Both the position numbers and the translations under genes were made by a program. The notes below the pieces were generated by a model that was given only the letters and a program-made list of their open reading frames with translations, ran no database searches and was not told the origin of the DNA. Positions 1-27,484 of a DNA stretch of 64,000 nt are shown piece after piece. The stretch lies in IMG/VR virus record IMGVR_UViG_3300025671_000038. The stretch is one strand, 5' to 3'. The stretch is from a virus. Within the stretch, counting starts at the first letter, position 1. The number at the start of each line of letters is the position of its first letter.

Positions 1-364
1 GGCCTACCCCTAATTTTCCCAGAATGGAATCAAGCATTTTGGTTTGCTTTAATGTTCTTGGAAATCCGTCTATGACTACCCCCTTCTCAAGATCCGCCTT
101 TCCTAGCTCCTTTCTTAACATTCTAGCCATGATTCGATCCGGTATGTAATCACCACCGGCTACAATTTTCTTCAGTTCTTCGTCTTTTGAATTTCGTATG
201 AGCTCTCCGGTGGAGATATGAGTAAATCCATTACCGGACTCCAATTTTTTAGAAATTGTTCCCTTACCAGATCCGGGAGGACCCATTATGATCAGGATTT
301 CCCCCTGCTTGTCCGGGATTTCTCTCTCGTTGATGAAATATTCGTAGCTTTTAACCTTATCCAT
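1..364 (-). CDS. adk: Adenylate kinase (5' part; runs off the left edge) with an N-terminal capsid-targeting-like peptide; not in the ORF track
   Basis: Manual translation from ATG at 364: MDKVKSYEYFINEREIPDKQGEILIIMGPPGSGKGTISKKL...HISTGELIR...GDFIPD...VIDGFPRTLKQ. P-loop GPPGSGKGT, HISTG and DGFPR are the adenylate kinase signatures. Confidence 0.9.
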   Translation of the reverse strand, partial: MDKVKSYEYFINEREIPDKQGEILIIMGPPGSGKGTISKKLESGNGFTHISTGELIRNSKDEELKKIVAGGDYIPDRIMARMLRKELGKADLEKGVVIDGFPRTLKQTKMLDSILGKLGVG

Positions 365-404
365 ACTAGAATAGTTGTTTTTTTATCTATATAGTCAAAT
401 TAGA

Positions 405-1010
405 CTATTTCTTTTCAAAATACCAGGTTCCGTACCATTCATTAGTTTTTGACACCTGGTATCCTCTGGATTCACAAAATTCATCTACCGCAGGATTTAC
501 CCCAAATACCCCGGAATAGCCATATTCATCATAAATATGCTTATCCTTCCCGTTCGGTAAAAATAATGGATCGTTATACCAGTCCATGTCGAGATAATCA
601 TGTCCCATGACCAATCCTCCCTTTCTTACCTTGGGGTACCAGAGATTTATATCCTCCTTGACAGAATCGTATGAGTGGTTAGCATCAATAAAAACAAAAT
701 CTAGGCTCTCGTCGGGAAATAGCTTATATGCCTGATCAGAAAATGCCCTTATCATAATAGCTCTCCTGCCGAATGGGGCCATTCTATCTACACATTCACT
801 GAGAATCATATAGGGTGAATGCTTACCGTGATTAGAAGAATCCGGATAATCTTCCTCGTCTAAACTCCTCCACACATCCACCATGTAGAGTTCACCTTCC
901 CACCTTTTCAGTATCTCCGCAGAGAATTCACCCTTAAGAGATCCGATCTCAGCTCCTACCTTATAACCCCTTTTTACGAAATACTCGTCTATTAAATCTT
1001 CCCTCTCCAT
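405..1010 (-). CDS. Class I SAM-dependent methyltransferase (Methyltransf_24-like)
   Basis: GAEIGSLKGEFS motif I; FVFIDANHSYDSVKEDINLWYPKVRKGGLVMGHDY is typical of this family. Confidence 0.8.
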   Translation of the reverse strand: MEREDLIDEYFVKRGYKVGAEIGSLKGEFSAEILKRWEGELYMVDVWRSLDEEDYPDSSNHGKHSPYMILSECVDRMAPFGRRAIMIRAFSDQAYKLFPDESLDFVFIDANHSYDSVKEDINLWYPKVRKGGLVMGHDYLDMDWYNDPLFLPNGKDKHIYDEYGYSGVFGVNPAVDEFCESRGYQVSKTNEWYGTWYFEKK

Positions 1011-1019
1011 TTACTCGTA

Positions 1020-1769
1020 TTATTTGAAAAACCCGCTATCGTAGACCTGTCGACGGGACTCCCACTTCTCCCGGTTGGAATATCCCTTTCTGGTCGATGA
1101 TATTTCATTGAGACCCAGTATATCCCGAGCTATTTCATAACTTTCCAGTGTTCCCCAATCCCTAGGATTTTTAAAGCTCTTATAATATCTCCATCCAGAT
1201 TTACAGATCCAACCGGAATAAAGATCCTGGTACCCCTGGGGGGTTCCGGTCGCAGATATTCCATTATTTTCCATGTCAAATCTTCCTATCTCAAAATGGG
1301 CATAAGTTTCAAGATCTTCCTCTTGGGAATTTATTAGCATCCCACTGTGCTTAAATATCCTTTCGATTTTGGACGAAAATTCTCCTTCAATCCCAAGATA
1401 AACCTGGCATTGCTTCTCCCTCATGTAAACCAAAGCTTGCTCAGCCCAACATTTGGCATCAGATAGAGATTCCGCGTGTAGATCTATTTTAACCTTCTTG
1501 CCACGAGGATCGTAAGATTCTTCACCTACCTTCATCATACCAAACTCTGAATCGCAGTAGTAAACCTCCACCTTTATATCACCAGCGAAGGACCGGAAAA
1601 AAGAGAACCACGTGTGTTGATGCATAACAACGCTTTCTAGTATTCCATATTCCTTCATGCCATGCATTCTTTCGCTAATTGTACATAGCAAAGTTTCCCC
1701 CGGAGGCACACCAGGGAAAGATCCTAGTGTTATTCTAAATCCTTTATTAAAATCTAAAGCTAGTCCCAT
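1020..1769 (-). CDS. Hypothetical protein resembling the N-terminal part of Aah/TibC-type (strand-loop-strand O-heptosyltransferase-like) glycosyltransferases
   Basis: KKVKIDLHAESLSDAKCWAEQALVYMREKQCQVYL resembles the recalled pattern RVxIxxxSxSLGDxxAWxPYxxxFxxxHxCxV, here degenerate. Start moved to ATG 1769, just after the upstream stop. Confidence 0.45.
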   Translation of the reverse strand: MGLALDFNKGFRITLGSFPGVPPGETLLCTISERMHGMKEYGILESVVMHQHTWFSFFRSFAGDIKVEVYYCDSEFGMMKVGEESYDPRGKKVKIDLHAESLSDAKCWAEQALVYMREKQCQVYLGIEGEFSSKIERIFKHSGMLINSQEEDLETYAHFEIGRFDMENNGISATGTPQGYQDLYSGWICKSGWRYYKSFKNPRDWGTLESYEIARDILGLNEISSTRKGYSNREKWESRRQVYDSGFFK

Positions 1770-1773
1770 TATC

Positions 1774-3360
1774 TTATTTTTTTCTAAGTACCCTATTCCC
1801 AATAACAAGAATATCTATCGTACCGTTTCTCAGATGACGAATGGCATGATGAGGATTATCTATTATGGGTTCCCCGTGACCGTTGAAAGAAGTATTTAGG
1901 ACCGCAGGTATACCAGTTTTTTTGTAGAATGCATTAATAACTTCCCAGAAGTACCCATTTGTTTCCTTATTAACCAATTGAGGTCTGGAAGTCTTATCCT
2001 CCCTATGGTAGCAAGCGGATATTTTATCCCTCCATTCGCTCTTAACAGTATAGCAAATAGTCATGAATTCAGAGGAATACTTAGACTTCCACCCGAATTC
2101 AAATAAATCTTCTGAAAACTCAGAGAGAACAGCAGGTGCAAAAGGCATAACCTGATTCCTTCCCAACCTTTCATTAAGTTTTGCGTGCATTTCTGGATCT
2201 GAGGGATTAACCAAGATGGACCTTGCACCCAGAGCTCTAGCACCATATTCGAATTTACCGTTGAATAGACCCACTATATCGCCCCGAACTATATGTGAAG
2301 CCAAATCATCCAGCGAAAGATCACTTTCATCCAAGTCGTCGTATTGGGAGATAGCTTCCGATATCTCTTCTTGGTTGTAGTCCAATCCATAAAAACAGTT
2401 ATCAAGCTTAAATGGATGTTTAATTTCGCCAAGGTCCCTGGCCATACATATAGCGGAACCTAGAGAAACCCCCTCGTCTCCCATTACCGGGACGACATAT
2501 ATCTCGTCTATAAGGTCTATCTCATTTATCTTCTGGTTCATCTTAACATTATGGAAAAGACCACCAGATAGCCCTATTTTTTTAGAATGCTCCGGATATT
2601 TATAACAAAGGTCCTTTATAAAGCGAACCATTATATTCTCAGTAACATCCTGTACAGCTCTAGCAAAATTCTGTCTACCTTCTTCAGAATCCAATATTCC
2701 TCTTTCTCTTACCTTGTTAAAAGCATAATTAGCAAAAAGATCCGTTCCAGCATTTTTTATTGAGAGAGAACCTGGCTCTTCATAAAAAATTATCTGGTTC
2801 ATTAGCGACTGAAGATACTCGTCATATCTTCCGTTAGCAGACATACCCATGACTTTGCCCTCATCTTGATGAGGTTTCCATCCAAGGATAGATGTTGCTT
2901 GAGTCCATAAGTTAGCTAACGATCCGAAAATATGGGAGGGCATAGAAAAAACCTGTTCCATTTTGCCATCCTCACATAACCAGACGTCTCCGTAGTTACC
3001 GTCCCCTCCACCATCGTAAGAAACCATCATACATTTTCCAGAAAATCCTGAAGTAAAATAAGTGGAAGCAGCGTGACATTCGTGATGTGGAAATTCTCTC
3101 ACTTGTCTGTCCCCGAGGTTATCTTTTATGAAGACATACGAGGTTGGAGTAGCAGTAGTCAGATAGTCTGCCTCGTCTATAGGCACTCCTGTAAAATCCT
3201 GTATTTTTTCCAAAGAAAGAGCGGGATAAGAAAAATCCGTATCCCCGCTCTTAACTCTGGTTATTCTCTCCTCCTGGATAGCTATCTTGATCTTCCCGTC
3301 TTCTATATAAACTATGGAAGCATCGTGAGCACCACCGTAAAAGCCATATATTTTGCTCAT
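1774..3360 (-). CDS. Carbamoyltransferase (NodU/CmcH/TobZ family)
   Basis: HDAS, EERITRVK, HHECHAAS, DGGGD, KVMG, SGGLFHNVKMN, GARALGARSIL, PFAP and LNTSFNGHGEPI motifs; both Kae1-like and YrdC-like halves present. Confidence 0.93.
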   Translation of the reverse strand: MSKIYGFYGGAHDASIVYIEDGKIKIAIQEERITRVKSGDTDFSYPALSLEKIQDFTGVPIDEADYLTTATPTSYVFIKDNLGDRQVREFPHHECHAASTYFTSGFSGKCMMVSYDGGGDGNYGDVWLCEDGKMEQVFSMPSHIFGSLANLWTQATSILGWKPHQDEGKVMGMSANGRYDEYLQSLMNQIIFYEEPGSLSIKNAGTDLFANYAFNKVRERGILDSEEGRQNFARAVQDVTENIMVRFIKDLCYKYPEHSKKIGLSGGLFHNVKMNQKINEIDLIDEIYVVPVMGDEGVSLGSAICMARDLGEIKHPFKLDNCFYGLDYNQEEISEAISQYDDLDESDLSLDDLASHIVRGDIVGLFNGKFEYGARALGARSILVNPSDPEMHAKLNERLGRNQVMPFAPAVLSEFSEDLFEFGWKSKYSSEFMTICYTVKSEWRDKISACYHREDKTSRPQLVNKETNGYFWEVINAFYKKTGIPAVLNTSFNGHGEPIIDNPHHAIRHLRNGTIDILVIGNRVLRKK

Positions 3361-3370
3361 TGTCTGATTT

Positions 3371-5863
3371 TTAAGATCCGCAAGCTAAACAATCATCCGG
3401 GTTGTCTAAACTGCAGGATAAGTCCGTTATAGTCTGGTTAGCAAGTTCCTTTAGCTCCTCGCTAGATTCGGAAGATAGTTTAGTAGCTTCCGAAGCTTCT
3501 TTTACCTGGATCTCTTTTTTCAATGTTTCGGTTGGGTTAGGTTTATTATACTTACTAGCATCAATACCAAGTCCAGAAAGAGCATCTACTGCAGCCTTAG
3601 TCCTTAAGTAATACATGCCTGTTTTGAGACCCAACTTCCAAGAATGGAAATGTGCAGCGGTTAGTTTAGCTGCATTCACACCCTCTATAAAGAGATTGAG
3701 AGACTGAGACTGGCAGATAAATTTACCTCTCTCCGCAGACATCTCGATTAGATCCTTCTGCTTTATCTCCCAAACCGTCTTGTAGATTTCTTTTATATCT
3801 TCAGGTATATTAGGTATATTCTGGATAGACCCCTTATGGATGATGATCATATTCTTCATATCCTCGTCCCAGAGATTGAGAGAAATTAAATCACTTACCA
3901 GATGCTTGTTTATTACTATGAATTCACCGCTTAAAGTTCTTCTCGTATAGATATTGGAAGTGAATGGTTCAAAAGCCTCATTGTTACCCATAATCTGAGC
4001 AGTAGATGCTGTTGGCATCGGAGCTAAGAGCAATGAATTTCTAGCTCCGTGCTTCATCACATCCTTTCGTAGCTTTTTCCAATCCCACCTTCCTGATAAC
4101 TCCTCATCCGTAAAATTCCAAAGATTAAACTGGAATTTTCCCTCGCTTAAAGGCGAACCTTCGAAGGTCTCATACGGACCAAGTTTTTTAGCAAGCGACA
4201 CAGAAGCAGACATAGCTGCGTAGTATATGGTTTCAAATATATCCGAGTTAATAGTTCTAGCCTCATCCGAAGAGAACGGTATTCCCATAAGAGCATAAAG
4301 ATCAGCCAGACCTTGTATACCTATACCTATAGGCCTATGTCTCATGTTGGATTTTTTAGTCTCTGGGGTCGGATAGAAATTAACATCTATAACCTTGTTT
4401 AGGTTAATAGCAGTTTGATAAGCTACATCATAAAGTAGATCGTGGTCTACCTCACACTTACCCCTAATAATCTTAGAAGTTCGGGCGTCCGTGGATTTAA
4501 GGAATTTATTTACCGCGATAGATGCAAGGTTACAAACAGCCTGCTCGTCCTTATCAGTGTATTCTATTATCTCAGTACAGAGATTAGAGGATTTTATGGT
4601 ACCAAGATTCTGCTGGTTAGACTTCCTGTTTGCAGCATCCTTGTAAAGTATATAGGGAGTGCCTGTTTCTATCTGAGACTCAACTATTTTTCCCCAAAGC
4701 TCGCGAGCACGAACAGTCTTTCTAGCCTTACCTGCTTTTTCGGCAGCTATGTATTTTTTGTTAAACTCTTCTCCGTAGACTTCATGTAGTCCAGGAACTT
4801 CTGATGGTGAAATCAAGGACCAGTTCTCATCCTTCTCCACCCTCTCCATGAATAGATCAGGAACCCAAAGGGCCAAGAACAAATCTCTGGCTCTTCTCTC
4901 TTCCTTTCCCGTGTTCTTTCTCAGCTCTAGAAAATCCTCAACATCAGCGTGCCAGGGTTCAAGGTAAATAGCGAAAGATCCTTTCCTTTTACCACCTCCT
5001 TGGTCAACGTATCTTGCGGTCTCGTTATAAACCTTGAGCATCGGAACAATTCCATTGGACTTTCCATTTGTCCCACGAATATAAGATCCGGTAGATCTTA
5101 CGTTGTGTATGGCTAATCCGATTCCACCAGCATTTTGGGAGATTAGAGCAACGTCTGATAATGTCTTATAAATCCCTGGGATTGAATCCTCACTCATGGT
5201 AAGTAGGAAACAAGAGGAAAGCTGGGGCTTCTTAGTCCCGGCATTAAATAAGGTCGGGGTTGCATGAGTCATCATATGGGTCGATAGGAGCTCATATGTT
5301 TTAATGGCATTTTTTATGTCACTACCCCATATCCCAACTGCAACTCTCATGTACATGTGTTGAGGTGTTTCCGAAGGGTTCCCGTGCATTTTCAAAAGGT
5401 AACTCTTCTCAAGAGTTTTAAATCCGAAGTATTCGAAGTTAAAATCTCGGTCGTGTATGATCGCAGAATCCAGCTTATTCTTATTTTTCTTGACAACCTC
5501 ATAGGTTTCGTCGCTGATCAGACCAGCAGGCTTGCCCGTTTCAGGATCTATGTAAGAATAAAGATCCTCTATCGTATCAGAGAATTTCTTTTTAGTTGTT
5601 TTGTGTAACCTTGAGACGGCTATTCTAGAAGCTAAGATGGAGTGATCTGGGTGGACCGGAATAAGAGAAGCAGCAGTTTCAGCTGCTAAGTTATCTAGTT
5701 CTCCCGTTGTAATACCATCATAAATCCCGGCGATAACCTTCTGGGATATCCCCATGGAATCCACAAAATCTGTATTTAGCCCATATGTCATTTTTCTTAC
5801 GCGATTAGATACCTTATCAAATCTAACCGCTTCGCTCGATCCGTCTCTTTTAGTTACGTACAT
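3371..5863 (-). CDS. nrdA: Ribonucleoside-diphosphate reductase class Ia, alpha subunit
   Basis: N-terminal ATP cone (VTKRDG), [39 protein letters not shown]-terminal CLACGS. Confidence 0.98.
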
Positions 5864-5880
5864 TCTCTAATTTATTTTTT

Positions 5881-6861
5881 TTAAAAGTCCACATCCATAT
5901 CGAATGCGTTCTCCGAGGAATTCATGACCCCCGCTTTTTGATATTCACCAACTCTCTTCTCGAAAAAGTTAGTCTTTCCCTGTAGTGATATGTTTGTCAT
6001 AAAGTCAAATGGGTTATCGACATTAAAGACCTTAGAACATTTCAGATCAACCAGGAGCCTATCTGCAACAAATTCCAGATATTGCTTCATAAGATCCGAA
6101 TTCATACCGATCAATTTAACTGGCAAAGACTCAGTGATGAATTCTTTTTCTATCTCAAGTGCACTTAGGATAATCTCTTTTATTCTCTCCTCAGAAACCC
6201 TGTTATTCACGAAGTTATTATGGAGCATAACAGCAAAATCACAATGCATTCCTTCGTCCCTAGAAATCAGCTCGTTAGAGAAACTAAGTCCTGGCATTAA
6301 CCCTCTTTTCTTAAGCCAGAAAATGGAGCAGAAGGAGCCGGAAAAGAATATTCCCTCCACAGCAGCAAAGGCAATCAGTCTCTCCTGGAAATACTCGGAG
6401 TCTACCCACTTAAGTGCCCATTCAGCTTTCTTCTTTACCGCGGGAATAGTATCTATAGCATTGAAAAGCTTGGTCTTCTCCGCTGGATCTGTAATGTAGG
6501 TGTCTATTAGCAAAGAATAGGTTTCGGAATGGATGTTCTCCATCATTATCTGAAACCCATAGAAAAATTTAGCCTCCGTATATTGAACTTCACCAACAAA
6601 ATTCTCAGCGAGGTTCTCGTTAACTATCCCATCAGAAGCAGCAAAAAAGGCTAAAACATGCTTTATGAAGTGCCTCTCATTATCGTTCAGCTTATTTCTC
6701 CAATCATCTATGTCACTGGATAGATCAATCTCTTCAGCAGTCCAGATGCATGCTTGCTGTTTTTTATACATATCCCATATCTCCGGGTGCTCTATTGGAA
6801 AAATCACAAATCGATTTGGATTTTCCTGTAATATCGGTTCAGGCAACGAATATCCCTCCAT
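5881..6861 (-). CDS. nrdB: Ribonucleoside-diphosphate reductase class Ia, beta subunit
   Basis: [59 protein letters not shown] at 6861 preferred; TTG at 6870 is an alternative start. Confidence 0.97.
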
Positions 6862-6901
6862 TGGTATCAATTTTTAAGTTTTGTTTAATTGTTATTTGTT
6901 A

Positions 6902-7369: not shown

Positions 7370-7415
7370 ATTTTTTTATTTGCTCTATTTTAAGCCCTTC
7401 CGACACCAGGTTTTT

Positions 7416-7423
7416 TATATATC
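7416..7423 (-). promoter_or_regulatory. GATATATA putative phage (late-type) promoter
   Basis: Intergenic, 47 nt upstream of the dUTPase ATG; recurring motif. Confidence 0.55.
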
Positions 7424-7460
7424 AAGTGGGTCTTCGGAGTGCGAGTATTTTTGAGATTTT

Positions 7461-8915: not shown

Positions 8916-8923
8916 GATATATA
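8916..8923 (+). promoter_or_regulatory. GATATATA putative phage promoter
   Basis: On the plus strand just upstream of the plus-strand ORF at 8931; orientation follows the gene. Confidence 0.6.
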
Positions 8924-8930: not shown

Positions 8931-9254
8931 ATGAAAGCTAACATCAAAAGTTTCGAAGATTTCCTTCTCGAATATTACGTTTCAGAAGCTCCTGGAAGCG
9001 TTGTTGTCCCAGGAGAATGGTATAAGGATAGCGTTAACTCAAGGAACTATAGGCCTGCATATACGCAAATGCCCCAGGTAGTGGACGCAATGTTTCAAAC
9101 AACCGATCTATACAACTATCTGGACACGCTATCCGAGGAGGAAGAATTCAGCAAAATTGTAAAAGAAAACAATGGAAAGCCCAAACAGATAATCAAGTAC
9201 CTTAAGAGGAGGATAAACGAGGAGTTACTTCCGCAGCAAAAAGGAGAAAAATAA
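8931..9254 (+). CDS. Hypothetical protein with a capsid-targeting-like N-terminus (putative internal head protein)
   Basis: Begins MKANIKSFEDFLLE; GATATATA ends 7 nt upstream of the ATG. Confidence 0.65.
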   Translation: MKANIKSFEDFLLEYYVSEAPGSVVVPGEWYKDSVNSRNYRPAYTQMPQVVDAMFQTTDLYNYLDTLSEEEEFSKIVKENNGKPKQIIKYLKRRINEELLPQQKGEK

Positions 9255-12012: not shown

Positions 12013-12432
12013 TTATCTGTAGTTTCCTCTTAATTCCTTCCTCCTTAAATAATTGAAGAGATATCTGAGTCCCTTCTTGTATTCAGCGGAATTTCTAAAT
12101 GGAGAAGGATAGGTTCGGATTGGGTTACCTTGACCCTCAGGGGTTTCCTCACTTCCCCTTACCTCTACAGGGTTATATCTTCTAACTACCCCTGTTGGAT
12201 GTATAGTATAAAACACTTCTCCATATCCATCAATAGAAGGCTGTGATTTTCTCTGGAACTTTAGAGTATTATTTAACTCCTGCTGGTGTGAGGTAACGTC
12301 CTCAAATCCGAGATCGAGAATATCGAGATATTCAATCTCCTTACGGATTTTTTCCAGATCTATATTTCTCCTGTTATCCTCCTGATACTCTTCCCTAGGT
12401 TCGTAATCTTTGTAAGACTTAATAGGCGACAT
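12013..12432 (-). CDS. Hypothetical protein with a capsid-targeting-like N-terminus
   Basis: MSPIKSYKDYEPREE; start overlaps the upstream stop at 12432. Confidence 0.6.
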   Translation of the reverse strand: MSPIKSYKDYEPREEYQEDNRRNIDLEKIRKEIEYLDILDLGFEDVTSHQQELNNTLKFQRKSQPSIDGYGEVFYTIHPTGVVRRYNPVEVRGSEETPEGQGNPIRTYPSPFRNSAEYKKGLRYLFNYLRRKELRGNYR

Positions 12433-13924: not shown

Positions 13925-14458
13925 TTATCTGCTAATTATGAAAGTTCCCTCGTGTGATCCTTCCTGTATAGACCATTCAGGACCGATGAATGATAGCAAT
14001 ATGGACTTCATGTTTTCTCCGTAATTGTCTACCTCCAGATGGTCTTGCATCTCGTCGAACATTCTAATCACCTTAGGGTTCTTTTCCAGGTAGCTTAGGA
14101 TGGCCTTAGCTATTTGCTCAAAGAACCTAGACATATCATTATCTTTCAACCTGAATTTACCCTCGCTAAGTTCGGGGATTTCAGCTTTACCCATTGCAAT
14201 ATCTTCTATTATTTCGGGTGCGATTTCATTGACATTCAAAACAGCATAGGAATTTTTAGGACCCTCCATAGTTTCGTATTGAGAGTATTTACCTATCATG
14301 AACATGATTCCTTTTTGCCCGCCATTTTCTAATTCCAGCTGGAAAAAGTAGTAGAAGAGATCTCCATCTCTCTTTTGCAAGAACGGCAATGTTCCAAAAC
14401 CGTCACCTTCATTTAGAGATCCCACGAAATCCTTAAAGTTCCTTATTCTTTTTTCCAC
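13925..14458 (-). CDS. Hypothetical protein with a capsid-targeting-like N-terminus
   Basis: MEKRIRNFKDFVGSLNEG; GATATATA at 14478-14485. Confidence 0.65.
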   Translation of the reverse strand: MEKRIRNFKDFVGSLNEGDGFGTLPFLQKRDGDLFYYFFQLELENGGQKGIMFMIGKYSQYETMEGPKNSYAVLNVNEIAPEIIEDIAMGKAEIPELSEGKFRLKDNDMSRFFEQIAKAILSYLEKNPKVIRMFDEMQDHLEVDNYGENMKSILLSFIGPEWSIQEGSHEGTFIISR

Positions 14459-14477: not shown

Positions 14478-14485
14478 TATATATC
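14478..14485 (-). promoter_or_regulatory. GATATATA putative phage promoter
   Basis: Intergenic, 20 nt upstream of ATG 14458. Confidence 0.6.
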
Positions 14486-16412: not shown

Positions 16413-16853
16413 TCAATTATAGTTTATATCGTTATTCGAACCGGCTTTAATGAAGTGAGAACCAAACTGAAGATCCATTTCAGACTTAGCCTTCCCATTT
16501 ACTATTAAATAACCTATACCTTTTATGATAGTTTCCAATAGAATTTTCGATTTATCTCTCAAATCTTTCTGGTATAGCTCAGATAACTCCAGTAAAAGAT
16601 CATCCAGGTCGGGGGCACTATCTTCCTTAGTTATAAGGTCAAATATTTCTTTCTCCATGGTATAAACAACATCATCCTCCAATAAAATATCCCAGTCTCC
16701 ATTCTTATTCTCGGATAAGCTGCCGTGGTTACCGAGTACCGTGGAAAATTCTATATTGTCACCTTCTCTTCCTACCAAGAGCGGGGAATCATTCTCCAAG
16801 AAAACCTCCAGAGCACCGTACATTAGGTCGTTATGTCTATTAGTAAAATCCAT
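16413..16853 (-). CDS. Hypothetical acidic protein
   Basis: 146-aa ORF coupled to the upstream stop at 16853. Confidence 0.6.
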   Translation of the reverse strand: MDFTNRHNDLMYGALEVFLENDSPLLVGREGDNIEFSTVLGNHGSLSENKNGDWDILLEDDVVYTMEKEIFDLITKEDSAPDLDDLLLELSELYQKDLRDKSKILLETIIKGIGYLIVNGKAKSEMDLQFGSHFIKAGSNNDINYN

Positions 16854-17764
16854 TATCTAACTTCAACTGGTATTTCATATCCGCCATTCTCCAAATATCT
16901 GAGAAGATCCTTCTTTATATCTTCAAACTTATCTGAATGTATAAAATCTGGAGATGACACTATAGACCAAACATCCTCGAATGTTTTCACGTCATTCTCG
17001 CCAAATCCCTTACCCAAGATCATCTCTATAAATTCATCGGGTTCCCTCGTTATGAACTCAGTACTTCCACTTACGGTTTTGGGATTTTTTAATCTCTTTG
17101 TAGCCCCCTTGAAGCTCTTCTTGTTCTTAAAAATACCGTCGCTAAGTCTGAGAGCGTAAGAATAAAAATCCTCCATCTCGCCATCCGGATCTTCAGTTAT
17201 GACCTCCTTCAAGGAGGATAATATAGCTTGGAAGAGCCAATTTCTATGTGCTGATTTGTATCTACTCTCATTCTTCCTATAGTCCGGGGAATAAAAAATA
17301 AATTTAGCCCAATCCATATCCGAGAGAGGAATAAGATCTAGCTGAACAATACCATTATTCGGATCACCCTCTATTGGCCACCCAATCGAAATAACGTTTA
17401 TTCCCTTCATCAGCTTTATGTCAGGTACAAACCCAATCCTATCTGGGAGCTCCTTAGTAAGCTTATCGTAGATAAATTCCAGCACGTTATCTGCATTTGT
17501 ACTGTATTTCCTAGCTATGAAGCTCTTGTCTATCCCAAGATCTATGTCACCTGAGGTTTCTTCTGCTCCCTTCTTTTTACCAACGCTTCCTATGACAAGA
17601 TAGTCCTTATCAATCTCGCCATCACCTATAAGGGGGAAAAGTATTTCCTTTATGGAATCCAAAGTACCGGGAACCTCTCTTTCCTTTATTCTCCTGGATG
17701 TCTTTATAGCTGCCCCACCTTCGAAGAGTGCTATGTAATTTTTATAAGAATGTATCCTTCCCAT
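16853..17764 (-). CDS. Pol-beta-superfamily nucleotidyltransferase-like protein with a capsid-targeting-like N-terminus
   Basis: YLVIGSVGKK...SGDIDLGID (hG[GS]...DhD), third acidic residue in IVQLDLIP; begins MGRIHSYKNYIALFEGG. Confidence 0.7.
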   Translation of the reverse strand: MGRIHSYKNYIALFEGGAAIKTSRRIKEREVPGTLDSIKEILFPLIGDGEIDKDYLVIGSVGKKKGAEETSGDIDLGIDKSFIARKYSTNADNVLEFIYDKLTKELPDRIGFVPDIKLMKGINVISIGWPIEGDPNNGIVQLDLIPLSDMDWAKFIFYSPDYRKNESRYKSAHRNWLFQAILSSLKEVITEDPDGEMEDFYSYALRLSDGIFKNKKSFKGATKRLKNPKTVSGSTEFITREPDEFIEMILGKGFGENDVKTFEDVWSIVSSPDFIHSDKFEDIKKDLLRYLENGGYEIPVEVR

Positions 17765-18247
17765 TTAGATCTCGAAATATTTCTCAGCCCCATAAATGTA
17801 GTCGGAGTATATTCTTTCCTCCCTATTCTTCGGGTTGTTTATGTCATATTTACCACCGAAGGTTTTCTTACCCTTAATTATAGCGTCTGTGTAAAATTCC
17901 TCGTAATCCTTCTGTTTGTTTTTACCAGAAGCTCTAATGCCATCCCCCCATTTAGAGAGTATCTCATCCTTTCCCCTTTCGAGAGATCCATCATCCATTC
18001 TGGCAATATCCTCCTTTTTAAAGACATCAGCAATACCCCTGCTGACCCCAGTAATGGCATTTATAGTTCTGGAAAGGAGTCTTCCTGCTGCTCCACCCTC
18101 ATCATAAACAGTCTGATATATCTTCTCCTCCGGGGTTTGAGCCTCGATCCTTTTTCTAATCGCCTTAATGCGATCTTCAGCTGAGATAGAAGAGTATGAA
18201 TAGTCCTCCTCATTTAGAAACGAGCGGAATCCCTTTAAGTTATTCAT
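17765..18247 (-). CDS. Hypothetical protein with a capsid-targeting-like N-terminus
   Basis: Probable start ATG 18247 (MNNLKGFRSFLNEED); GATATATA at 18269-18276 lies across the longer ORF start. Confidence 0.65.
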   Translation of the reverse strand: MNNLKGFRSFLNEEDYSYSSISAEDRIKAIRKRIEAQTPEEKIYQTVYDEGGAAGRLLSRTINAITGVSRGIADVFKKEDIARMDDGSLERGKDEILSKWGDGIRASGKNKQKDYEEFYTDAIIKGKKTFGGKYDINNPKNREERIYSDYIYGAEKYFEI

Positions 18248-18268: not shown

Positions 18269-18276
18269 TATATATC
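18269..18276 (-). promoter_or_regulatory. GATATATA putative phage promoter
   Basis: Intergenic, 22 nt upstream of ATG 18247. Confidence 0.6.
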
Positions 18277-19811: not shown

Positions 19812-19820
19812 GCATCTAAG

Positions 19821-20273: not shown

Positions 20274-20274
20274 C

Positions 20275-21571: not shown

Positions 21572-21627
21572 CGTTTACCAATTTAAATTCTTCATTTCCT
21601 TTACTTAGATAACTTCAGTTTAACACT

Positions 21628-21663
21628 AAAAAGGGAGGAACAGCTCTGGTAACTGTTCCTCCC
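21628..21663 (-). terminator. Rho-independent terminator after gp32
   Basis: GGGAGGAACAG-ttaccagag-CTGTTCCTCCC followed by TTTTT on the minus strand. Confidence 0.85.
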
Positions 21664-21677
21664 AGTGTTATAACCTA

Positions 21678-22631
21678 TTAAAGGTCAGAATAGAGATCAT
21701 CCAAAGAAGAAGCTGTCTCTGGACTAGATGGTTGCTTCAGGGGTTGTTCCTCTTGTGGGGTGTTTCCAACCTTCGTCGAAGATACCTCGTTGTAGATATC
21801 GTCTGCGGTTCTAGAGGTGGAAGGTGCAGGGGTAGACGAAACGTTAGCTCCGGACATAACTTCATTAACCATTCTGCCATCCGGTACTGTGTTCCTGATG
21901 ATGTTCATCACCCTTTCCGTGGTATTCTCGTCCCAATCCTTGTATTCAAAATTGGTAAGGTTATCCGGTCCCGTTTTAAGATACTCCAGAATAGTATCCA
22001 TGTCCTTCTTGTTCTTACCCATCTTCTTTCCGTCTATCTCTATGGGTGTATTGTTACCCACGAATTGACAGAGATCGTAATTGTTCCATTCACCAACCTT
22101 TCTAGAATGTATAGAGAATAGCTTACCCTCGAACAGATCATATGGGTTGCAAGGGTCACCGTATTCTGGCTTCAGTTGAGATTCCAGCATATCGTTGATC
22201 TTACGACCAAATTTAAAGGTCATGATCTTCCCTTCTAGCTCGGGGTTGTTTTTATCCTGTACGATCTGGATGAGAGAGTAATAATCCTCCTTTCTGGAGA
22301 AGTTTCTAGCCAGATCCTGATCTGCAGCAGAATTGGAGTTCTTAAGCTTCCAAAAGATGTCTTTAAGAACTGATTTTTTACCTACTGTGGACGGACAATC
22401 TACAGGGAATCCATCTCCTGTTGTAGGATCATTAAGATATACGTAGTATTTCTGAATTTTGGATTTGGCCGGATCTACGTGGTTTGGTAAAAACCTAATT
22501 AGAGACTTGTAAACCCCATCCTTTCCGTTTTCCGGGTACGGCTTGTAAAATTCTAAATCTCTCGAATCTTCCTTCTTGCTCTTCGTTACGAAGTTATCAA
22601 CATCTAAGTTGAAAATGTCTAAATTACTCAT
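21678..22631 (-). CDS. Single-stranded DNA-binding protein (T4 gp32-like)
   Basis: LIRFLPN, CPSTVGKK, YYSLIQIVQDKNNPELEGKIMTFKFGRKINDM, NPYDLFEG, WNNYD; acidic tail SLDDLYSDL. Confidence 0.9.
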   Translation of the reverse strand: MSNLDIFNLDVDNFVTKSKKEDSRDLEFYKPYPENGKDGVYKSLIRFLPNHVDPAKSKIQKYYVYLNDPTTGDGFPVDCPSTVGKKSVLKDIFWKLKNSNSAADQDLARNFSRKEDYYSLIQIVQDKNNPELEGKIMTFKFGRKINDMLESQLKPEYGDPCNPYDLFEGKLFSIHSRKVGEWNNYDLCQFVGNNTPIEIDGKKMGKNKKDMDTILEYLKTGPDNLTNFEYKDWDENTTERVMNIIRNTVPDGRMVNEVMSGANVSSTPAPSTSRTADDIYNEVSSTKVGNTPQEEQPLKQPSSPETASSLDDLYSDL

Positions 22632-22670
22632 TGTTCCTTTAATTAATTTTTAAAATCCTTTATTTAATCT

Positions 22671-23456
22671 CTAAGTGTCCCAAAAGTTTCCCCTAGACTG
22701 TATATATCCCGAACTTTTTTTTATATCGTTACCCTTTCTTACTTGCTCCGTGGGTAACATGATCCCTCGGAGTGAAACCTGAAGGTCACTTCTCACAACA
22801 CCATATTCCGATGTGAGTAAATGGTTTCTTAAAAGAGTCTCGGGGTGAAAGAATATCGCATCCCTTGTAAGATAGTTCTCAAGATTTTCATAGAGGCTAC
22901 AATAGTGACCCATTGCATCCCTAGCTCCATAAGCTATCACATCGTTAATACCTCCCCTCCAATCAAATCCCTGAGGGATAGCGATCATATTTTTTCCAAA
23001 ATTGAAAAAAAGATCGTTGTGCACCTTTATATCAAATCTTCCCTTTATAATATAGTCATATCTCCTACCCACGGATCTCTCATACTTCTGCATAAGATGG
23101 TATGAGGAATTGATTTTATACCACATACAAAAAACAGACTGCGGATTAATCTCGCCATTCAGTGGGGAATAACCCTCATAAATCATCGATCTCTCCCTTA
23201 TTTTGGTTATAGTCTCCGATTCAAAATCCTCCATCAGGATGGATTTTGGCTTATAGAGGGAAATAGCATCACCAACGCTAAGACTATCTCTCAGGTTACC
23301 CGTATAGGGCTGAACGGTTTCTCTTATCTCGTCAGAGGGATTCCAGGATGAGATGAAAACATCCGGGGAGTACTTGTCAAGTATCCTGCTTTTTATATAG
23401 GGGTAACATTCCAGACCTTCCCTAAATTGACCCGAAAGAAGTAAAGCTACTCTCAT
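22671..23456 (-). CDS. Putative glycosyltransferase-fold protein of glycan loci
   Basis: MRVALLLSGQFR...DVFISSW, YDYIIKGRFD, GINDVIAYG, HPETLL: a pattern typical of viral and bacterial glycan-locus proteins. Confidence 0.55.
   Translation of the reverse strand: MRVALLLSGQFREGLECYPYIKSRILDKYSPDVFISSWNPSDEIRETVQPYTGNLRDSLSVGDAISLYKPKSILMEDFESETITKIRERSMIYEGYSPLNGEINPQSVFCMWYKINSSYHLMQKYERSVGRRYDYIIKGRFDIKVHNDLFFNFGKNMIAIPQGFDWRGGINDVIAYGARDAMGHYCSLYENLENYLTRDAIFFHPETLLRNHLLTSEYGVVRSDLQVSLRGIMLPTEQVRKGNDIKKSSGYIQSRGNFWDT
22701..22708 (-). promoter_or_regulatory. GATATATA putative phage promoter
   Basis: In the 3' end of the upstream ORF, 70 nt upstream of the gp32 ATG. Confidence 0.45.
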
Positions 23457-23896
23457 CTATACTTTCCTATATAGTCACTGCAAATTCCTGAGCAGACCGC
23501 GATATCCTCATCATTAACTTCAGGCATAACGGCTATGCTATTTTCTATTGGTTGCTTTCCTACTAAGGCCCAGCGATAACCCTTACTAGTAAAAACCACA
23601 TCGTCGGATTCATGAACAAAATAATTTAGAAAATCCCCCGCCGGATCTATTCTGGAAAGCTCACGAAAAGCTAGCAAATTTTTACAATGGATCCAAAGCT
23701 TCCTGGAGTTCTTCAAAAGGAATTCGTATTGAATCTCGTGTTGTGGCTCATCGTGTCCAAGTTTAAACATCCCGTCAATGAACCAGAGATCTATTTCAAC
23801 TTCGTAATTGTATAAAGCTTCAACTATATAATCAGGATCGTTCTCCCTTTTGGAATTAGGACCATCAATATTTCCGCGATGTGATATTAATATCAT
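23453..23896 (-). CDS. Truncated glycerophosphodiester phosphodiesterase (GDPD/PLC-like) protein
   Basis: ISHRGN, EN, EVEIDLW, GHD, WIHCKN motifs. Confidence 0.7.
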   Translation of the reverse strand: MILISHRGNIDGPNSKRENDPDYIVEALYNYEVEIDLWFIDGMFKLGHDEPQHEIQYEFLLKNSRKLWIHCKNLLAFRELSRIDPAGDFLNYFVHESDDVVFTSKGYRWALVGKQPIENSIAVMPEVNDEDIAVCSGICSDYIGKYR

Positions 23897-23902
23897 CTGC
23901 TC

Positions 23903-25093
23903 TCAAGAATTCACAAACTTATAGATAGCTTCTCTATACTCTTTTCCCCTCTCACCATCGATTGCCTGCCTCATAGCAATCGCACCACTTTTAGTTCCGC
24001 TTGGGTGACCGTGCATTGCTCCTCCTACATTTGCTAGGTAATCAACACCAACCTGCTCGTTTATCTGGTCCACAAGACCAGGGTGGAATCCACAGCTTAA
24101 AGCAGGGAGAGTTCCTTGATTTCTTGATTGCTCTATAGCGGCTAAAACCTCCTCCTCGTCAGCAGGATAATATCCGCCAATCATTCCCGAGTGAATAAAG
24201 TCCACCCCCATCATTCCAGCAAGCTTGCACATGAAAGGCCAAGAGATGCTAAATTGGTGATCCGGGTTTGTTATAACTCTATCTCCGCTCTTTTGGAAAT
24301 GCATAAAAAGCGGGAGATCGAGCTCCCTTATGTTTTTATAAACTCCCAGCCCGCACCAAAAGTTAACGTGTATCCCATTACCTCCTAGTTCGTAAACCTG
24401 TTTTACTCTCTCCAGTATATAGGCAGGATCTGAATGGATAGAAACACAATAAACCACATTCTTATCTTTCAAATAATCCATGATAAGTGGAACCCGGTCC
24501 TCTATCTTACAGAATGATGGGCTGGAAAGTATTTCATCCTCCTTGATGAAATTCACTCCTCCCTCAACCATTTCCTTAACCATCTCCAGCATGACTTGTG
24601 GCGAGACCCCAGTTTTTGGCTTTAGTATTCCTCCGAGGAGTGGCTTGTTGTAGACACCGGTAAATTTTCTTATACCATCAATCCCATATTTAGGTCCCAT
24701 AAAACAATCAGAAACACATTCCGGAAAATCTATGTCAATCAACTTGCATTTTTTTATTTCGGCTATATCCATCTGACCTCCCATTACATTCACCAACAAG
24801 TGAGCAACCCCGTCAGTTTTAAAGTCAATGTTTATCACAGGGAAAGCAATAGTGACCTCCCCCGTTTTTTCATTGCTCATATCTCCCATATCACCGACGA
24901 TCAAACAAGAGTGATTCTCAAAGAGCTCATCAGTTTCCCAGACACTCCTGGATGATGGGTTACCCACACTTTGACCTATTGCTATATTCCAAGCAGCAGA
25001 TGCTAAATTCTTAGAACATTCAACATAATACTTAGCAAAGAAGTACTTGTCAGCATCTATTTGATTTCTCGATTTAAATAATTCAGATTTCAT
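23903..25093 (-). CDS. RuBisCO-like protein (form IV-type RLP)
   Basis: LLGGILKPKTG, GGVNFIKEDE (K201/D203/E204 equivalents), MHFQKSG, DFIHSG, LSCGFHPG, VGGAMHGHPSGTKSGAIAMRQA. The loop-6 Lys of true RuBisCO is absent. Confidence 0.9.
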   Translation of the reverse strand: MKSELFKSRNQIDADKYFFAKYYVECSKNLASAAWNIAIGQSVGNPSSRSVWETDELFENHSCLIVGDMGDMSNEKTGEVTIAFPVINIDFKTDGVAHLLVNVMGGQMDIAEIKKCKLIDIDFPECVSDCFMGPKYGIDGIRKFTGVYNKPLLGGILKPKTGVSPQVMLEMVKEMVEGGVNFIKEDEILSSPSFCKIEDRVPLIMDYLKDKNVVYCVSIHSDPAYILERVKQVYELGGNGIHVNFWCGLGVYKNIRELDLPLFMHFQKSGDRVITNPDHQFSISWPFMCKLAGMMGVDFIHSGMIGGYYPADEEEVLAAIEQSRNQGTLPALSCGFHPGLVDQINEQVGVDYLANVGGAMHGHPSGTKSGAIAMRQAIDGERGKEYREAIYKFVNS

Positions 25094-25403
25094 ACTTATC
25101 TCCCGGTTTAGAGGGTGTCTTAACTATAAAAACCTCGCAGTCTTCGAGGAAAACAGGATTAGCTATCTCGTATTTCCTGATAACGAAAACATCACCAGCT
25201 TTGAGTATTTTGTCCTGTATAATCATTCTACCCTTGTGGAGGTAGTTTATTTCGTCAGCTTCTTTGTGATAGTGTGCTGGCCAATCCTCTCCTTTCTTAT
25301 GCCTTTTAAAGCATATCTCAAATTGATCGGTTTTATAAGCGGAGGGAAGGAAGTCTCCAACGAACCATCCACCCTGGTAATCATCTATTTTAGATACTTC
25401 CAT
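25083..25403 (-). CDS. Cupin-fold protein (putative sugar isomerase/epimerase)
   Basis: GWFVGDF, HKKGEDWPAHYHKEADEINYLHKG (HxH...E cupin motif 1), LKAGDVFVI (motif 2). Confidence 0.75.
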   Translation of the reverse strand: MEVSKIDDYQGGWFVGDFLPSAYKTDQFEICFKRHKKGEDWPAHYHKEADEINYLHKGRMIIQDKILKAGDVFVIRKYEIANPVFLEDCEVFIVKTPSKPGDKYEI

Positions 25404-26136
25404 TGGCTATTTTATTTTTATAAATCTCAAGATCTTCCGGGGTACCTATCGGGAAATGAAGGTTGAAGAAATATGGCAATATCTTTTTACCCCTCTTTAT
25501 CAAATAGTTATATGAGGGAGCAACGTAAAACTCACTGTTATACCGGTCATTAGCTTCTATCATCTCCATCGAGGATTCTACGAAATCGGACCCTCTCTTC
25601 CAGTAGTGCAATCCGTTAGTAGCTATATTTGATATAACTATTTTTTCCTTCACGTCACAAACTTCCCCGTTTGGATCCAATTTGACGTAACTATTCTTTT
25701 TAGAGGAAGATAAAAAGCATCCTAAGAACCCATCACAAGCCGTATTTGAAGCAAACTTGGATAAAACATTAAGATCATAGTCCAATATAATCTGATCACA
25801 GTTTACTATGATCAAAGGATCATTGGTATTAATGATAGACTGGGCCAGTAGAGCAGTACAGGCTGGTCCTTCTGTTAATTTCGGGGTGGAAATAACGTCA
25901 TGTGAAATAGGCATATCGGATATGTGCCTCTTAAACTCATCGACAGATATGTGCTCCTCGTTGATCACGAATATAAAATGGGCAGACTCATTGTGGAGGT
26001 TTCCGACTACGGTCCGTATCATAGAATCGTCGATGACCTTGATATAAGGTTTAATCTCGTTATACCCAGCATCGGAAAATCTTTTTCCCATCCCGCCTAG
26101 GGGTATCAGTATATTAATCCTCCTTAAGTCTTCCAT
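25390..26136 (-). CDS. Sugar-phosphate nucleotidyltransferase (NTP_transferase, GT-A fold)
   Basis: NILIPLGGMGKRFSDAGY...KPYI, TEGPACT, IIVNCDQ, VKEK, EFYVAPSYN, GTPEDL. Confidence 0.85.
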   Translation of the reverse strand: MEDLRRINILIPLGGMGKRFSDAGYNEIKPYIKVIDDSMIRTVVGNLHNESAHFIFVINEEHISVDEFKRHISDMPISHDVISTPKLTEGPACTALLAQSIINTNDPLIIVNCDQIILDYDLNVLSKFASNTACDGFLGCFLSSSKKNSYVKLDPNGEVCDVKEKIVISNIATNGLHYWKRGSDFVESSMEMIEANDRYNSEFYVAPSYNYLIKRGKKILPYFFNLHFPIGTPEDLEIYKNKIANGSI

Positions 26137-26782
26137 CTAAAAAAATACAAATCCAGGTAGCATCAATAAGATCATCCAGAGGTTTATTTACATTTCCGCT
26201 GGGCGTTATCCATTCTCCCCTATTACTTTCAAGTATATTAGTGAAATAGCTCAGATTGGTTTCAGCTCTTTTACAATTAACTAGGGAATCATAGAGCTGA
26301 TGTTTTTTTGCATTCCCTTTAATAGCGAATTTCTTAATGGAGGTCGGGGAAAAAACATAAAAATTCGAACTACCCACCTCGTCAACTATTTTTTTTCTAA
26401 GTAGGGCAGTAGCCATAGAGATGTCAATTAGGGCATTACCATTGGATGCAAAACTTAAACCCTCCATAGCTATATAGATCTCGTCACCCTCTTGGGTGTG
26501 AGATATGACTGAATCCCAGAATCGGTCGACTAGGTCGGAAAAGTAATCAATCTTAAGCCTCTCCCTTTCGGAGTATTCCTCAGGCATTTTCTCTTTTCCC
26601 ATAAACATGAGATCAAACCCATCCATTTCGGAGAGGAATGCGAATGGTTTTGCTTTAGATCTTTTTAGTGATTCTTCTGTGCGATCACTTCGGGTAAGTG
26701 ATCCCCATTTAAATTGATTATCCCTAAGCAAACAAAAAGCTGGCGAGTTCAGAGAAAAATCTATTCCGATAAGAGTTCTCAA
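26114..26782 (-). CDS. RuvC-like Holliday junction resolvase
   Basis: LIGIDFSLNSPA, IAMEGLSF, SPTSIKKFAIKGNAKK, DDLIDA: RNase H-fold catalytic D/E/D/D. TTG start. Confidence 0.8.
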   Translation of the reverse strand: MRTLIGIDFSLNSPAFCLLRDNQFKWGSLTRSDRTEESLKRSKAKPFAFLSEMDGFDLMFMGKEKMPEEYSERERLKIDYFSDLVDRFWDSVISHTQEGDEIYIAMEGLSFASNGNALIDISMATALLRKKIVDEVGSSNFYVFSPTSIKKFAIKGNAKKHQLYDSLVNCKRAETNLSYFTNILESNRGEWITPSGNVNKPLDDLIDATWICIFLDGRLKED

Positions 26783-26809
26783 AATATTGAGTGTTTAAAA
26801 GTTTCACTC

Positions 26810-26817
26810 TATATATC
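26810..26817 (-). promoter_or_regulatory. GATATATA putative phage promoter
   Basis: Immediately after the terminator 26823-26849 and upstream of the RuvC-like gene and the sugar cassette. Confidence 0.6.
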
Positions 26818-26822
26818 CTCAC

Positions 26823-26849
26823 AAAAAACCCCCGAATTAAGGGGGTTTT
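26823..26849. terminator. Rho-independent terminator (possibly bidirectional)
   Basis: AAAAAACCCCC-gaattaa-GGGGGTTTT, 22 nt after the stop of 26871..27236. Confidence 0.8.
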
Positions 26850-26870
26850 ATAGATATGTACTTAATGTGA

Positions 26871-27236
26871 TTAAACCTTTACCAGTCTTTTAGAAACTAG
26901 CCCCGGAATCTCTATTTCAGAATCCCCTTTCGTAACCGCTTTCTCTATGTTATCCACTATCTTCTTGTCGATAGCGCTTTCAAGTTCGGTAGGTTCCACT
27001 ATTTTAACTTTTAAACTCTCTCCTGAAGGTTTGAGATCGACTACTTCAACTCTATTCCATTTTTTTCCAAATGGATTTAGATAATTACCTGGATTAAATT
27101 CGGCCTCGAGTTGATATTCATTGCCGTTTAAAATTATATTGCCATTACTGCTCTTCTTCACTTCCAATTTTTCATTGATCTGTATAGAACCTTTAGAAGG
27201 GTTAGTAAAGGATTCGTAGGTAAGTATCGTTTCCAT
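26871..27236 (-). CDS. Hypothetical protein with a capsid-targeting-like N-terminus
   Basis: METILTYESFTNP...QINEK; coupled to the upstream stop. Confidence 0.6.
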   Translation of the reverse strand: METILTYESFTNPSKGSIQINEKLEVKKSSNGNIILNGNEYQLEAEFNPGNYLNPFGKKWNRVEVVDLKPSGESLKVKIVEPTELESAIDKKIVDNIEKAVTKGDSEIEIPGLVSKRLVKV

Positions 27237-27484
27237 TAGTCCATTGATGGTTTAACTACATTTCCCTTCTTGCCAGTGTAATTATAGACATTAACAAGCT
27301 TGTCGTAGCATTTTTTCATCTGGTCATCTGTCAAGCAAGAGACCAGGTCATTAAGAACCCTTTGGTCGTTACCTGAAGCAGCAACCAATAGATCTTTCAT
27401 ATGTTGCTTTAGGTCATCCTCGCCATACATGGGCTGACCATATTTCATTTCGTTTAACTGAGTTAGTTCAGAGAATTTTTTCAT
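27236..27484 (-). CDS. Hypothetical protein with a capsid-targeting-like N-terminus
   Basis: Probable start ATG 27484 (MKKFSELTQLNE), 22 nt after GATATATA (27506-27513). Confidence 0.6.
   Translation of the reverse strand: MKKFSELTQLNEMKYGQPMYGEDDLKQHMKDLLVAASGNDQRVLNDLVSCLTDDQMKKCYDKLVNVYNYTGKKGNVVKPSMD

Follow-up and report, generated by a model that had tools for sequence, protein, structure and literature searches.

Phage proteins that are injected together with the DNA act first in an infection, and several of them disarm host defences; such proteins are normally found only via proteomics on cultured phages. In phage T4, a capsid-targeting sequence (CTS) is present on internal proteins, namely IPI, IPII and IPIII, and in the propeptide of Alt, and the gp21 prohead protease cuts it off (Mullaney & Black 1996; PMC9026906, PMC3012670, PMC9958956). 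Within the CTS of IPIII, residues 4 and 7 serve targeting and residues 8 and 10 serve processing, which is blocked by an Asp at position 10 (PMC9026906). Phages phiKZ, 201phi2-1 and SPN3US contain tens of internal head proteins, and the cuts made by a gp21-related protease fall after Glu (Thomas et al.; PMC5694885, PMC10052503); the propeptides of the phiKZ/SPN3US type are mostly 80-250 residues long, have no common sequence and are cut at (S/A/G)-x-E (PMC5694885). Here we address a short N-terminal leader shared by otherwise unrelated proteins in a 64,000-nucleotide stretch of viral DNA (IMG/VR record IMGVR_UViG_3300025671_000038; the whole stretch is referred to as the window). An earlier reading of the letters, made without database searches (the sequence-only reading), had listed eight such N-termini and proposed a T4-like capsid-targeting peptide on a packaged and injected set of proteins that includes enzymes. 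Our analysis suggests, with a probability of roughly 0.7, that the shared N-terminus is a two-part T4-type capsid-targeting propeptide, and that the leader proteins would be packed into the head and leave it with the DNA.

The window represents the minus strand of bases 24867-88866 of a 116,154-bp IMG/VR virus contig (G000), which CheckV estimated to be 42% complete and which is thus a piece of a huge phage. A longer version of this contig (184,870 bp) is known from a protein collection; the counts given here cover the 116,154-bp version, on which genes were called across the whole length by a simple purpose-made scorer, yielding 116 proteins. Three relatives were used for comparison: a 128-kb contig (G001) that is syntenic with G000 and 69% identical to it in one tail-region protein, a complete 373-kb genome with terminal repeats (G003) and a complete 271-kb genome (G004). 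A megablast search of 20 kb against GenBank phages gave no match, and the nearest named relatives, at approximately 30% protein identity, were jumbo phages, mostly of Bacteroidota (Lak, Tenacibaculum PTm1 and pT24, Chryseobacterium MA9V, Flavobacterium MaF61 and Sphingomonas PAU).

All eight reported N-termini read in the sequence as they had first been written; they all lie in positions 1-27484, and the pattern proved to be wider, with 11 more leaders on the contig beyond the window (e.g., MGGKIFNFREFTEDVLNE, MKHISLFEDYSNKINE, MDNGIKTFDEFRSNRDVNE and MRKILNHKDFISLRDLSE). The leader, which is 12-30 residues long, consists of two parts. Its core reads I-K-x-F/Y-x-D/E-F/Y, or (I/V/L)-K-x-(F/Y)-x-(D/E/S)-(F/Y) in a wider form, and a second part, (L/I/V)-N-E, follows after a spacer of 0-15 residues and is usually succeeded by S, A or G. 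When 83 leaders were pooled from four genomes, the consensus was M-(K/N)-(N/K)-I-K-(S/N)-F-(E/S)-(D/E)-F-(L/I)-N-E; 44 leaders had a core that began at residue 4, F or Y stood at the two aromatic positions in 76 and 69 of the 83, respectively, and (L/I/V/F/M)-x-E followed within 22 residues in 68. At these 68 sites, P3 was L, I or V in 63 cases, P2 was Asn in 40, and the next residue was S, A or G in 37. The likeness to T4 was addressed with a 7-residue matrix built from the G000 leaders only (n=19) and used with cut-offs of 8 bits and 6 bits. Run blind over 245 T4 N-termini, this matrix placed ipI first (MKTFKEF..., 15.5 bits), and ipIII and ipII stood in a three-way tie for second place (9.5 bits). 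The T4 form MKTYQEFIAE was confirmed on ipII and ipIII in NC_000866; the sequence-only reading had given a 10-residue propeptide to all of the T4 internal proteins, which does not hold for IPI, whose propeptide has 19 residues. At the level of sequence, the targeting and processing positions mapped in T4 correspond to the conserved aromatic pair and the (L/I)-x-E of the leaders described here, and the leader Glu was never replaced by Asp, either in 54 aligned adenylate kinase and nucleotidyltransferase homologues or in the other homologue N-termini inspected.

The presence of enzymes among the tagged proteins, as the sequence-only reading had claimed, was borne out by domain or fold matches for an adenylate kinase, a Pol-beta-type nucleotidyltransferase and a RimK-type ligase. 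The adenylate kinase gene (2..364, minus strand; 213 aa in full) has its N-terminal part in the window and runs off the left edge, and its leader, MDKVKSYEYFINE, is encoded at 326-364. The Pfam ADK domain (E 1e-33) starts at residue 26; in the AF2 model, residues 1-17 had a pLDDT below 50 and the fold began with strand 1 at residue 23. Of the 120 top-ranking homologues, which were 57-100% identical and came from contigs of up to 403 kb, 119 had the complete leader and the remaining one began inside it; the leader took the form M.K(V/I)K.F..F(L/I)NE followed by RE(L/I)PD.QG, with insertions of 0-7 residues between the core and (L/I)NE. In 26 aligned homologues, F10 and E13 were invariant and as fixed as the P-loop, and the adenylate kinases of other phages outside the clade aligned from residue 24 onward only. 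The 303-aa nucleotidyltransferase (16853..17764, minus strand; leader MGRIHSYKNYIALFE at 17720-17764) carries a G-S-x12-D-I-D motif, and its AF2 model had a mean pLDDT of 90.9, with only residues 1-16 below 50, a stretch that ends exactly at the predicted cut (LFE, then GG). Foldseek matched it to Pol beta, Cid1 and CCA-adding enzymes (E ~5e-4) with low TM-scores, so that it is assignable to the superfamily only. About 113 of the 120 listed nucleotidyltransferase homologues keep a diverging leader, and E15-G16-G17 was invariant in 28 aligned homologues; for the two enzymes together, the leader was retained in about 230 of the 240 listed homologues. The models thus place the leader as an add-on outside the enzyme fold in both proteins.

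Other tagged proteins extended this set. A 492-aa leader protein encoded outside the window (L003:15550-17028, at about -16960 to -15482 in window coordinates) is a RimK-type ATP-grasp ligase (E 7e-34), in which the RimK_N pre-ATP-grasp domain starts at residue 24. This protein also showed a weak C-terminal match to the zinc-protease-like domain PF05618, and G000 in addition encodes a homologue of ribosomal protein S1, which together with the ligase hints at a ribosome-modifying theme. A 409-aa leader protein has a PHROG endolysin-like C-terminus, and it shows an H...S.GC motif that resembles those of YkuD enzymes; phmmer searches against PDB sequences were uninformative for this protein and for the nucleotidyltransferase. 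Among the leader proteins of the relatives, those with Pfam matches included three SLT transglycosylases, one CHAP peptidase and one peptidoglycan-binding protein, a cargo that would fit ejection proteins, that is, virion-borne enzymes breaching the cell wall. Pfam and PHROGs returned nothing for most leader proteins.

The nature of the cargo bears on the alternative that the leader targets the prohead core but that most tagged proteins are assembly or scaffold helpers, which are degraded, expelled or kept undelivered, so that there is no injected enzyme payload. Such helpers would need none of the activities indicated by the P-loop of the adenylate kinase, the GS...DxD motif of the nucleotidyltransferase, the RimK ATP-grasp fold and the SLT and CHAP domains, yet folded enzymes with intact catalytic motifs are tagged under strong purifying selection in more than 100 lineages. 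The three tagged proteins that adjoin the capsid gene are of the kind that this alternative predicts, being lysine-rich, core/scaffold-like coiled coils, and several tagged proteins have further internal [LIV]NE sites. The alternative also agrees with a cargo set that is conserved: G003 homologues were found for 21 of the 25 G004 leader proteins, a rate no different from that of other genes, which ruled out a hypervariable cargo as at the T4 internal protein loci, and these homologues keep a leader-like N-terminus. Considering that CTS-bearing proteins of T4 are delivered into the host (PMC9026906), we regard a set consisting mostly of undelivered helpers as unlikely. In a milder form of this view, all tagged proteins would reach the core and some of them may stay undelivered.

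A capsid-targeting function should be reflected in the head genes, and both the expected capsid protein and the expected protease were observed in this lineage. The first 448 bases of the contig encode the C-terminal 148 aa of a gp23-type capsid protein, approximately 97% identical to that of G001 (564 aa; Pfam Gp23, E 4e-40). Just upstream of the G001 capsid gene, a 674-aa protein begins with a Peptidase_S77 domain (Pfam E 5e-7; phrog_207 head maturation protease, E 3e-36), and the three genes directly after the capsid gene are orthologues of the G000 leader genes at 88323, 87221 and 86335. One S77 protease, in a frame of 650-680 aa, was present in 5/5 complete or near-complete relatives with the leader-bearing adenylate kinase that were probed. 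The C-terminal two-thirds of the protease protein (2282-4306 in G001 (L045), 50884-52854 in G003 and 46011-47960 in G004) consist of about 14 tandem 14-residue repeats, YSEY(L/I/V)AE(N/K)LDK.I., each with a protease-type site, and the tail after the repeats contains five (L/I/V/M)NE sites. In the propeptide of the G001 capsid protein, INE likewise occupies residues 4-6, and SLNE precedes SAG at 40-46.

The repeats and the leaders share the heptad [FYW]x[DES][FYW][LIV]xE, which is the functional part of the T4 CTS (YQEFIAE). In the proteomes of G001, G003 and G004, this heptad is nearly limited to the scaffold repeats and the N-terminal leaders: 11 of the 12 matches in G001 fell within the scaffold, the 24 matches in G003 (4.1 expected) included 9 in the scaffold and 9 at N-termini, and the 21 matches in G004 included 10 and 6, respectively. 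Among the six T4 matches are IPII, IPIII and the gp23 maturation site already known, FGSFLTE. We also observed that T4 gp61.1, a 54-aa hypothetical protein (NC_000866 18966-19130, minus strand), begins MKTFKEFIKE and matches the CTS heptad no less well than IPII and IPIII. Among the distant named relatives, the S77 protease of MA9V-1 starts a 1347-aa frame (OR050627.1 126501-130544) with 18 (L/I/V/M)NE(S/A/G) sites, which looks like a polyprotein that would be cut into modules by its own protease, and the protease frame of PTm1 (589 aa) has 9 (L/I/V/M)NE sites. Three T4-like leaders were found in MA9V-1 (MKNFFSFINE, MKTFFNFVNE and MQYYMKTFTCFINE), ending in [IV]NE, on proteins of 269, 99 and 86 aa, one of them adjoining the protease; PTm1 gave a weak leader signal only, and neither an S77 protease nor a leader was found in MaF61. 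A narrow DNA pattern had no match in PAU, pT24, PTm1 or MA9V-1 and no N-terminal case in Lak-A1, negatives that carry little weight because the pattern is too narrow for the three leaders of MA9V-1.

This restricted distribution of the heptad has to be set against a second alternative, in which the leader is a tag for another process (a docking or activation peptide, a non-capsid sorting signal or a zymogen-type inhibitor) and its likeness to T4 is convergent. A tag on 8-10% of the proteins, many of them acidic and one a housekeeping-type kinase, would sit comfortably with such a role. The sole partner found to share its sequence, however, was the protease-scaffold protein, the heptad being almost absent elsewhere in the proteomes, and the cleavage motif also occurs in the propeptide of the capsid protein and in the protease polyproteins. 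Over the first 35 residues, hydrophobic runs in the 19 leader proteins reached a length of 1-6 residues at most. A Sec, Tat or lipoprotein signal peptide, which has a hydrophobic core of about 10 or more residues in the first 30, was ruled out, as no leader had a run of even 7. We find a tag for another process improbable, and marginally more so than a set of undelivered helpers.

The motif was enriched at N-termini. The pattern [ILV]..[FY].[DESN][FYW], starting within the first 9 residues, occurred 14 times on the contig compared with 0.57 expected from the internal rate (P 2e-15); a looser pattern was found in 20 of the 116 contig proteins, against a mean of 4.2 and a maximum of 12 in shuffled N-termini; and the first 26 residues of leader proteins were 27-fold enriched in [LIV]NE relative to the rest (P 8e-14). 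With the matrix, 18 proteins of G000 scored at least 8 bits (0.4 expected), giving 18-19 leaders on the contig; a protein at window position -12932 (MINDYVDHYFLTAINE) was dropped from the leader set as doubtful. In G003, 34 leader proteins scored at least 8 bits (2.6 expected) and 48 at least 6 bits, and in G004 the numbers were 25 (2.1 expected) and 36, so that leader proteins make up 8-10% of the genes in these complete relatives. Two of the G003 matches were false positives, namely a Rad50-like ATPase, whose N-terminal strand belongs to the ATPase domain, and a protein with an FAD-binding Rossmann-like N-terminus (the latter judged by eye only), in agreement with the expected background of 2.6. 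Replication enzymes, in which an equally common motif would have counted against the sequence-only reading by its own terms, carried no true leader. Apart from this, about 10 small leader genes, mostly on the minority strand, are clustered within 8 kb at one end of G004 (262000-270400), and 4 of them have no G003 homologue. The synonymous codons of the conserved leader residues vary freely, and none of the tail/baseplate proteins encoded at 27.5-64 kb has the motif; thus, the signal acts at the protein level, and an RNA-level or translation-signal origin was ruled out. Accordingly, that the motif is no protein signal at all, and reflects AT-rich codons, a translation-start feature of the mRNA, common descent or chance, is extremely improbable: the genes do lack Shine-Dalgarno sites, K, N, I, F and Y (AT-rich codons) abound in the leader and promoter-like elements lie only about 20 nt upstream, but besides the free codon variation, tail/baseplate genes lack the motif even where they have the same promoter element, in their mature parts the tagged proteins have unrelated folds, the enrichment reaches P 1e-13 to 1e-15, and spacer indels leave both halves of the leader intact.

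The other six tagged proteins of the window, together with their upstream elements, illustrate the variation of the leader. As had been reported, the genes at 8931, 14458, 18247 and 27484 directly follow a perfect GATATATA, a late-promoter-like element, at 7-21 nt. The first of these genes (8931..9254, plus strand; element at 8916..8923, plus strand) encodes a 107-aa protein with the leader MKANIKSFEDFLLE at 8931-8972, which had a leave-one-out matrix score of 16.7 bits; this protein had no Pfam or PHROG family match. The 139-aa protein at 12013..12432 (minus strand; core MSPIKSYKDY at 12403-12432) is without the canonical (L/I/V)-x-E, E-Y being conserved after the core instead, and its core is kept by the orthologues in G001, G003 and G004. 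The 177-aa protein at 13925..14458 (minus strand; element at 14478-14485) has a GTG start and the leader MEKRIRNFKDFVGSLNE at 14408-14458; in its G001 orthologue the leader has diverged (MKIKVLSFSDFNRRINE) and is followed by the same GDGFG. The gene of the 160-aa protein at 17765..18247 (minus strand; leader MNNLKGFRSFLNE at 18209-18247, element at 18269-18276) leads the operon that contains the nucleotidyltransferase gene. A long-spacer leader, METILTYESFTNPSKGSIQINE at 27171-27236, was found on the 121-aa protein at 26871..27236 (minus strand), and the most T4-like leader, MKKFSELTQLNE at 27449-27484, on the 82-aa protein at 27236..27484 (minus strand; element at 27506-27513), for which MK[KT]F[ST][DE]L..[IL]NE followed by MKYGQP was conserved in G001, G003 and G004.

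The octamer GATATATA occurs in 10 copies in the window compared with approximately 5.5 expected, all of them on the strand of the following gene. ATATATA was present within 80 nt upstream of 10/19 leader genes and 12/97 other genes of G000 (P 3e-4), and the association with leader genes was observed in all four genomes (P 0.03 to 8e-8); the other leader genes are mostly downstream in the same operons or have the variant GATAAATAG. Either GATAAATAG or CTATATAG stands in place of GATATATA at window 320-400 and upstream of -17929 and -10463, and the GATAAATAG variant resembles the T4 late promoter TATAAATA. The ATATATA element also heads the protease-capsid operon of G001 and several tail genes, and G001 encodes a gp55-like late sigma factor (phrog_234, E 4e-15; L029:17710-18066) beside a gp4-like head-closure protein. 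A T4-like late co-expression of leader genes with head genes is therefore plausible from these elements.

Some further features of the region were recorded. Another phage protein with a DnaJ J-domain-like start (MGKDYYKILNV...) is encoded at L003:7899-8924 (window about -8856 to -7831), and a thioredoxin-like gene with a WCGPC motif lies at about -18315 of the window. The window and the contig differ at 42491-42500 by two compensating 1-nt homopolymer indels, 10 nt apart, within a 1188-aa gene (40896-44462), and they probably represent different assembly versions.

Taken together, the proposal of a T4-type capsid-targeting propeptide cut after Glu came out positive in all of the sequence tests run (blind likeness to T4, position match, protease and capsid genes, shared cleavage motif, fold-external leader and promoter link), while the cut itself stays a predicted one. 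We infer docking, cleavage, packaging and injection from the motif, its enrichment, its T4 likeness, its genomic context, its position outside the fold and its conservation. In the mechanism that we propose, the leader core most likely docks a protein onto the scaffolding core during prohead assembly, and the scaffold in this lineage would be the C-terminal part of the prohead protease protein. Because each repeat carries the same heptad, Y-S-E-Y-(L/I/V)-A-E, the leader probably represents one repeat unit of the scaffold and co-assembles with it. The gp21-family (S77) prohead protease is likely to cut at the (L/I/V)-N-E followed by S, A or G; once the shell has closed, it would cleave off the leader and break up the scaffold, and the mature proteins would then stay in the head, packed with the DNA, and exit at infection. 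The predicted cargo of G000 comprises the adenylate kinase, the RimK-type ligase, the Pol-beta-type nucleotidyltransferase, the YkuD-like cell-wall enzyme, three coiled-coil proteins and many proteins without a family match. We give even odds to the broader proposal that capsid-loaded proteins account for 8-10% of the genes in a widespread clade of Bacteroidota phages of huge size (250-430 kb), that any protein bearing the tag, a copy of the scaffold repeat, rides along and is released by the head protease, and that working enzymes are delivered that act before any phage gene expression. The delivered set would then include adenylate kinase, RimK-type ligase, nucleotidyltransferases and cell-wall hydrolases.

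Several observations weigh against this interpretation. Many tagged proteins are acidic, with net charges down to -21, unlike the basic internal proteins of T4, and the tagged share of the proteome is far above that of T4. Injection of an adenylate kinase of the housekeeping type would be odd, and the cargo set is largely conserved, not hypervariable as the payload of an arms race might be. About 15 of the 83 leaders, including that of the protein at 12432, have no (L/I/V/F/M)-x-E within 22 residues. The protease gene of G000 would lie just off the contig, as judged from the 69%-identical relative G001. Distant relatives that have the S77 protease (PTm1 and MA9V-1) show few leaders, and Lak-A1, PAU and pT24 showed none in the narrow scan. 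Finally, no cultured phage of this clade was found, the nearest one in culture being Chryseobacterium phage MA9V-1 or MA9V-2, and the clade is known from sequence alone. We nevertheless consider a greatly expanded version of the T4 capsid-targeting system to be well supported at the sequence level. In full-text literature searches, no paper was found to describe this leader for huge phages or for phages of Bacteroidota. If the interpretation is correct, the proteins delivered by a large group of huge phages, uncultured and common in the environment, could be listed by a sequence rule, and the three to five cases in T4 would greatly understate both the age of the T4 mechanism and its capacity to expand. 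Unexpected activities, such as adenylate kinase and a ribosomal-protein-S6-type ligase, would be among those delivered, with possible roles in takeover or counter-defence. In addition, the likeness between the leader and the scaffold repeat offers a testable answer to the open question in T4 of what the CTS binds.

Comparison with known systems places these leaders closest to T4, with partial parallels elsewhere. The cargo-loading peptides of encapsulins are usually C-terminal and uncleaved and bind the shell directly, and encapsulins contain no DNA and make no delivery; what they have in common with the system proposed here is a short linear peptide outside the enzyme fold that directs unrelated enzymes to an HK97-fold shell. 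T7 gp16, an internal core protein with an SLT lytic transglycosylase domain, is ejected from the head at infection, and it is paralleled by the SLT, CHAP and YkuD-like cell-wall enzymes among the leader cargo of G000 and its relatives; it lacks both a cleavable targeting peptide and a prohead protease and forms part of a fixed core stack. With phiKZ, 201phi2-1 and SPN3US, the present phages would share a large capsid, many internal proteins, a gp21-related protease with cuts after Glu, propeptides thought to target the prohead and an enzyme cargo, which in those phages is the virion RNA polymerase. In contrast to phiKZ and SPN3US, the leaders described here are short (12-30 residues) and have a shared motif with L, I or V at P3 and a predicted (L/I/V)-N-E cut site; such a short shared motif, unlike the phiKZ-type propeptides, makes the cargo predictable from its N-terminus alone. 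As in T4, an N-terminal peptide of 10-20 residues with the pattern hydrophobic-K-x-(Y/F)-x-(D/E)-F-(I/L)-x-E, of which MKTYQEFIAE is the T4 form, is found on otherwise unrelated proteins, in a lineage that has a gp23-type capsid protein, an S77 gp21-type protease, a late-promoter-like element and a gp55-like sigma factor, and T4 Alt is an existing example of a delivered enzyme that parallels the enzyme cargo. The differences from T4 are that these are huge (250-430 kb) phages of Bacteroidota, far from Straboviridae; that 25-48 proteins per genome are tagged, compared with 3-5 in T4; that the core starts at residue 4 rather than residue 1, P2 is mostly Asn and the core and the cut site lie 0-15 spacer residues apart; that the cargo contains many acidic proteins as well as enzymes of a metabolic type (adenylate kinase and RimK-type ligase) and forms a mostly conserved set; and that the scaffold is fused to the protease and made of leader-like repeats.

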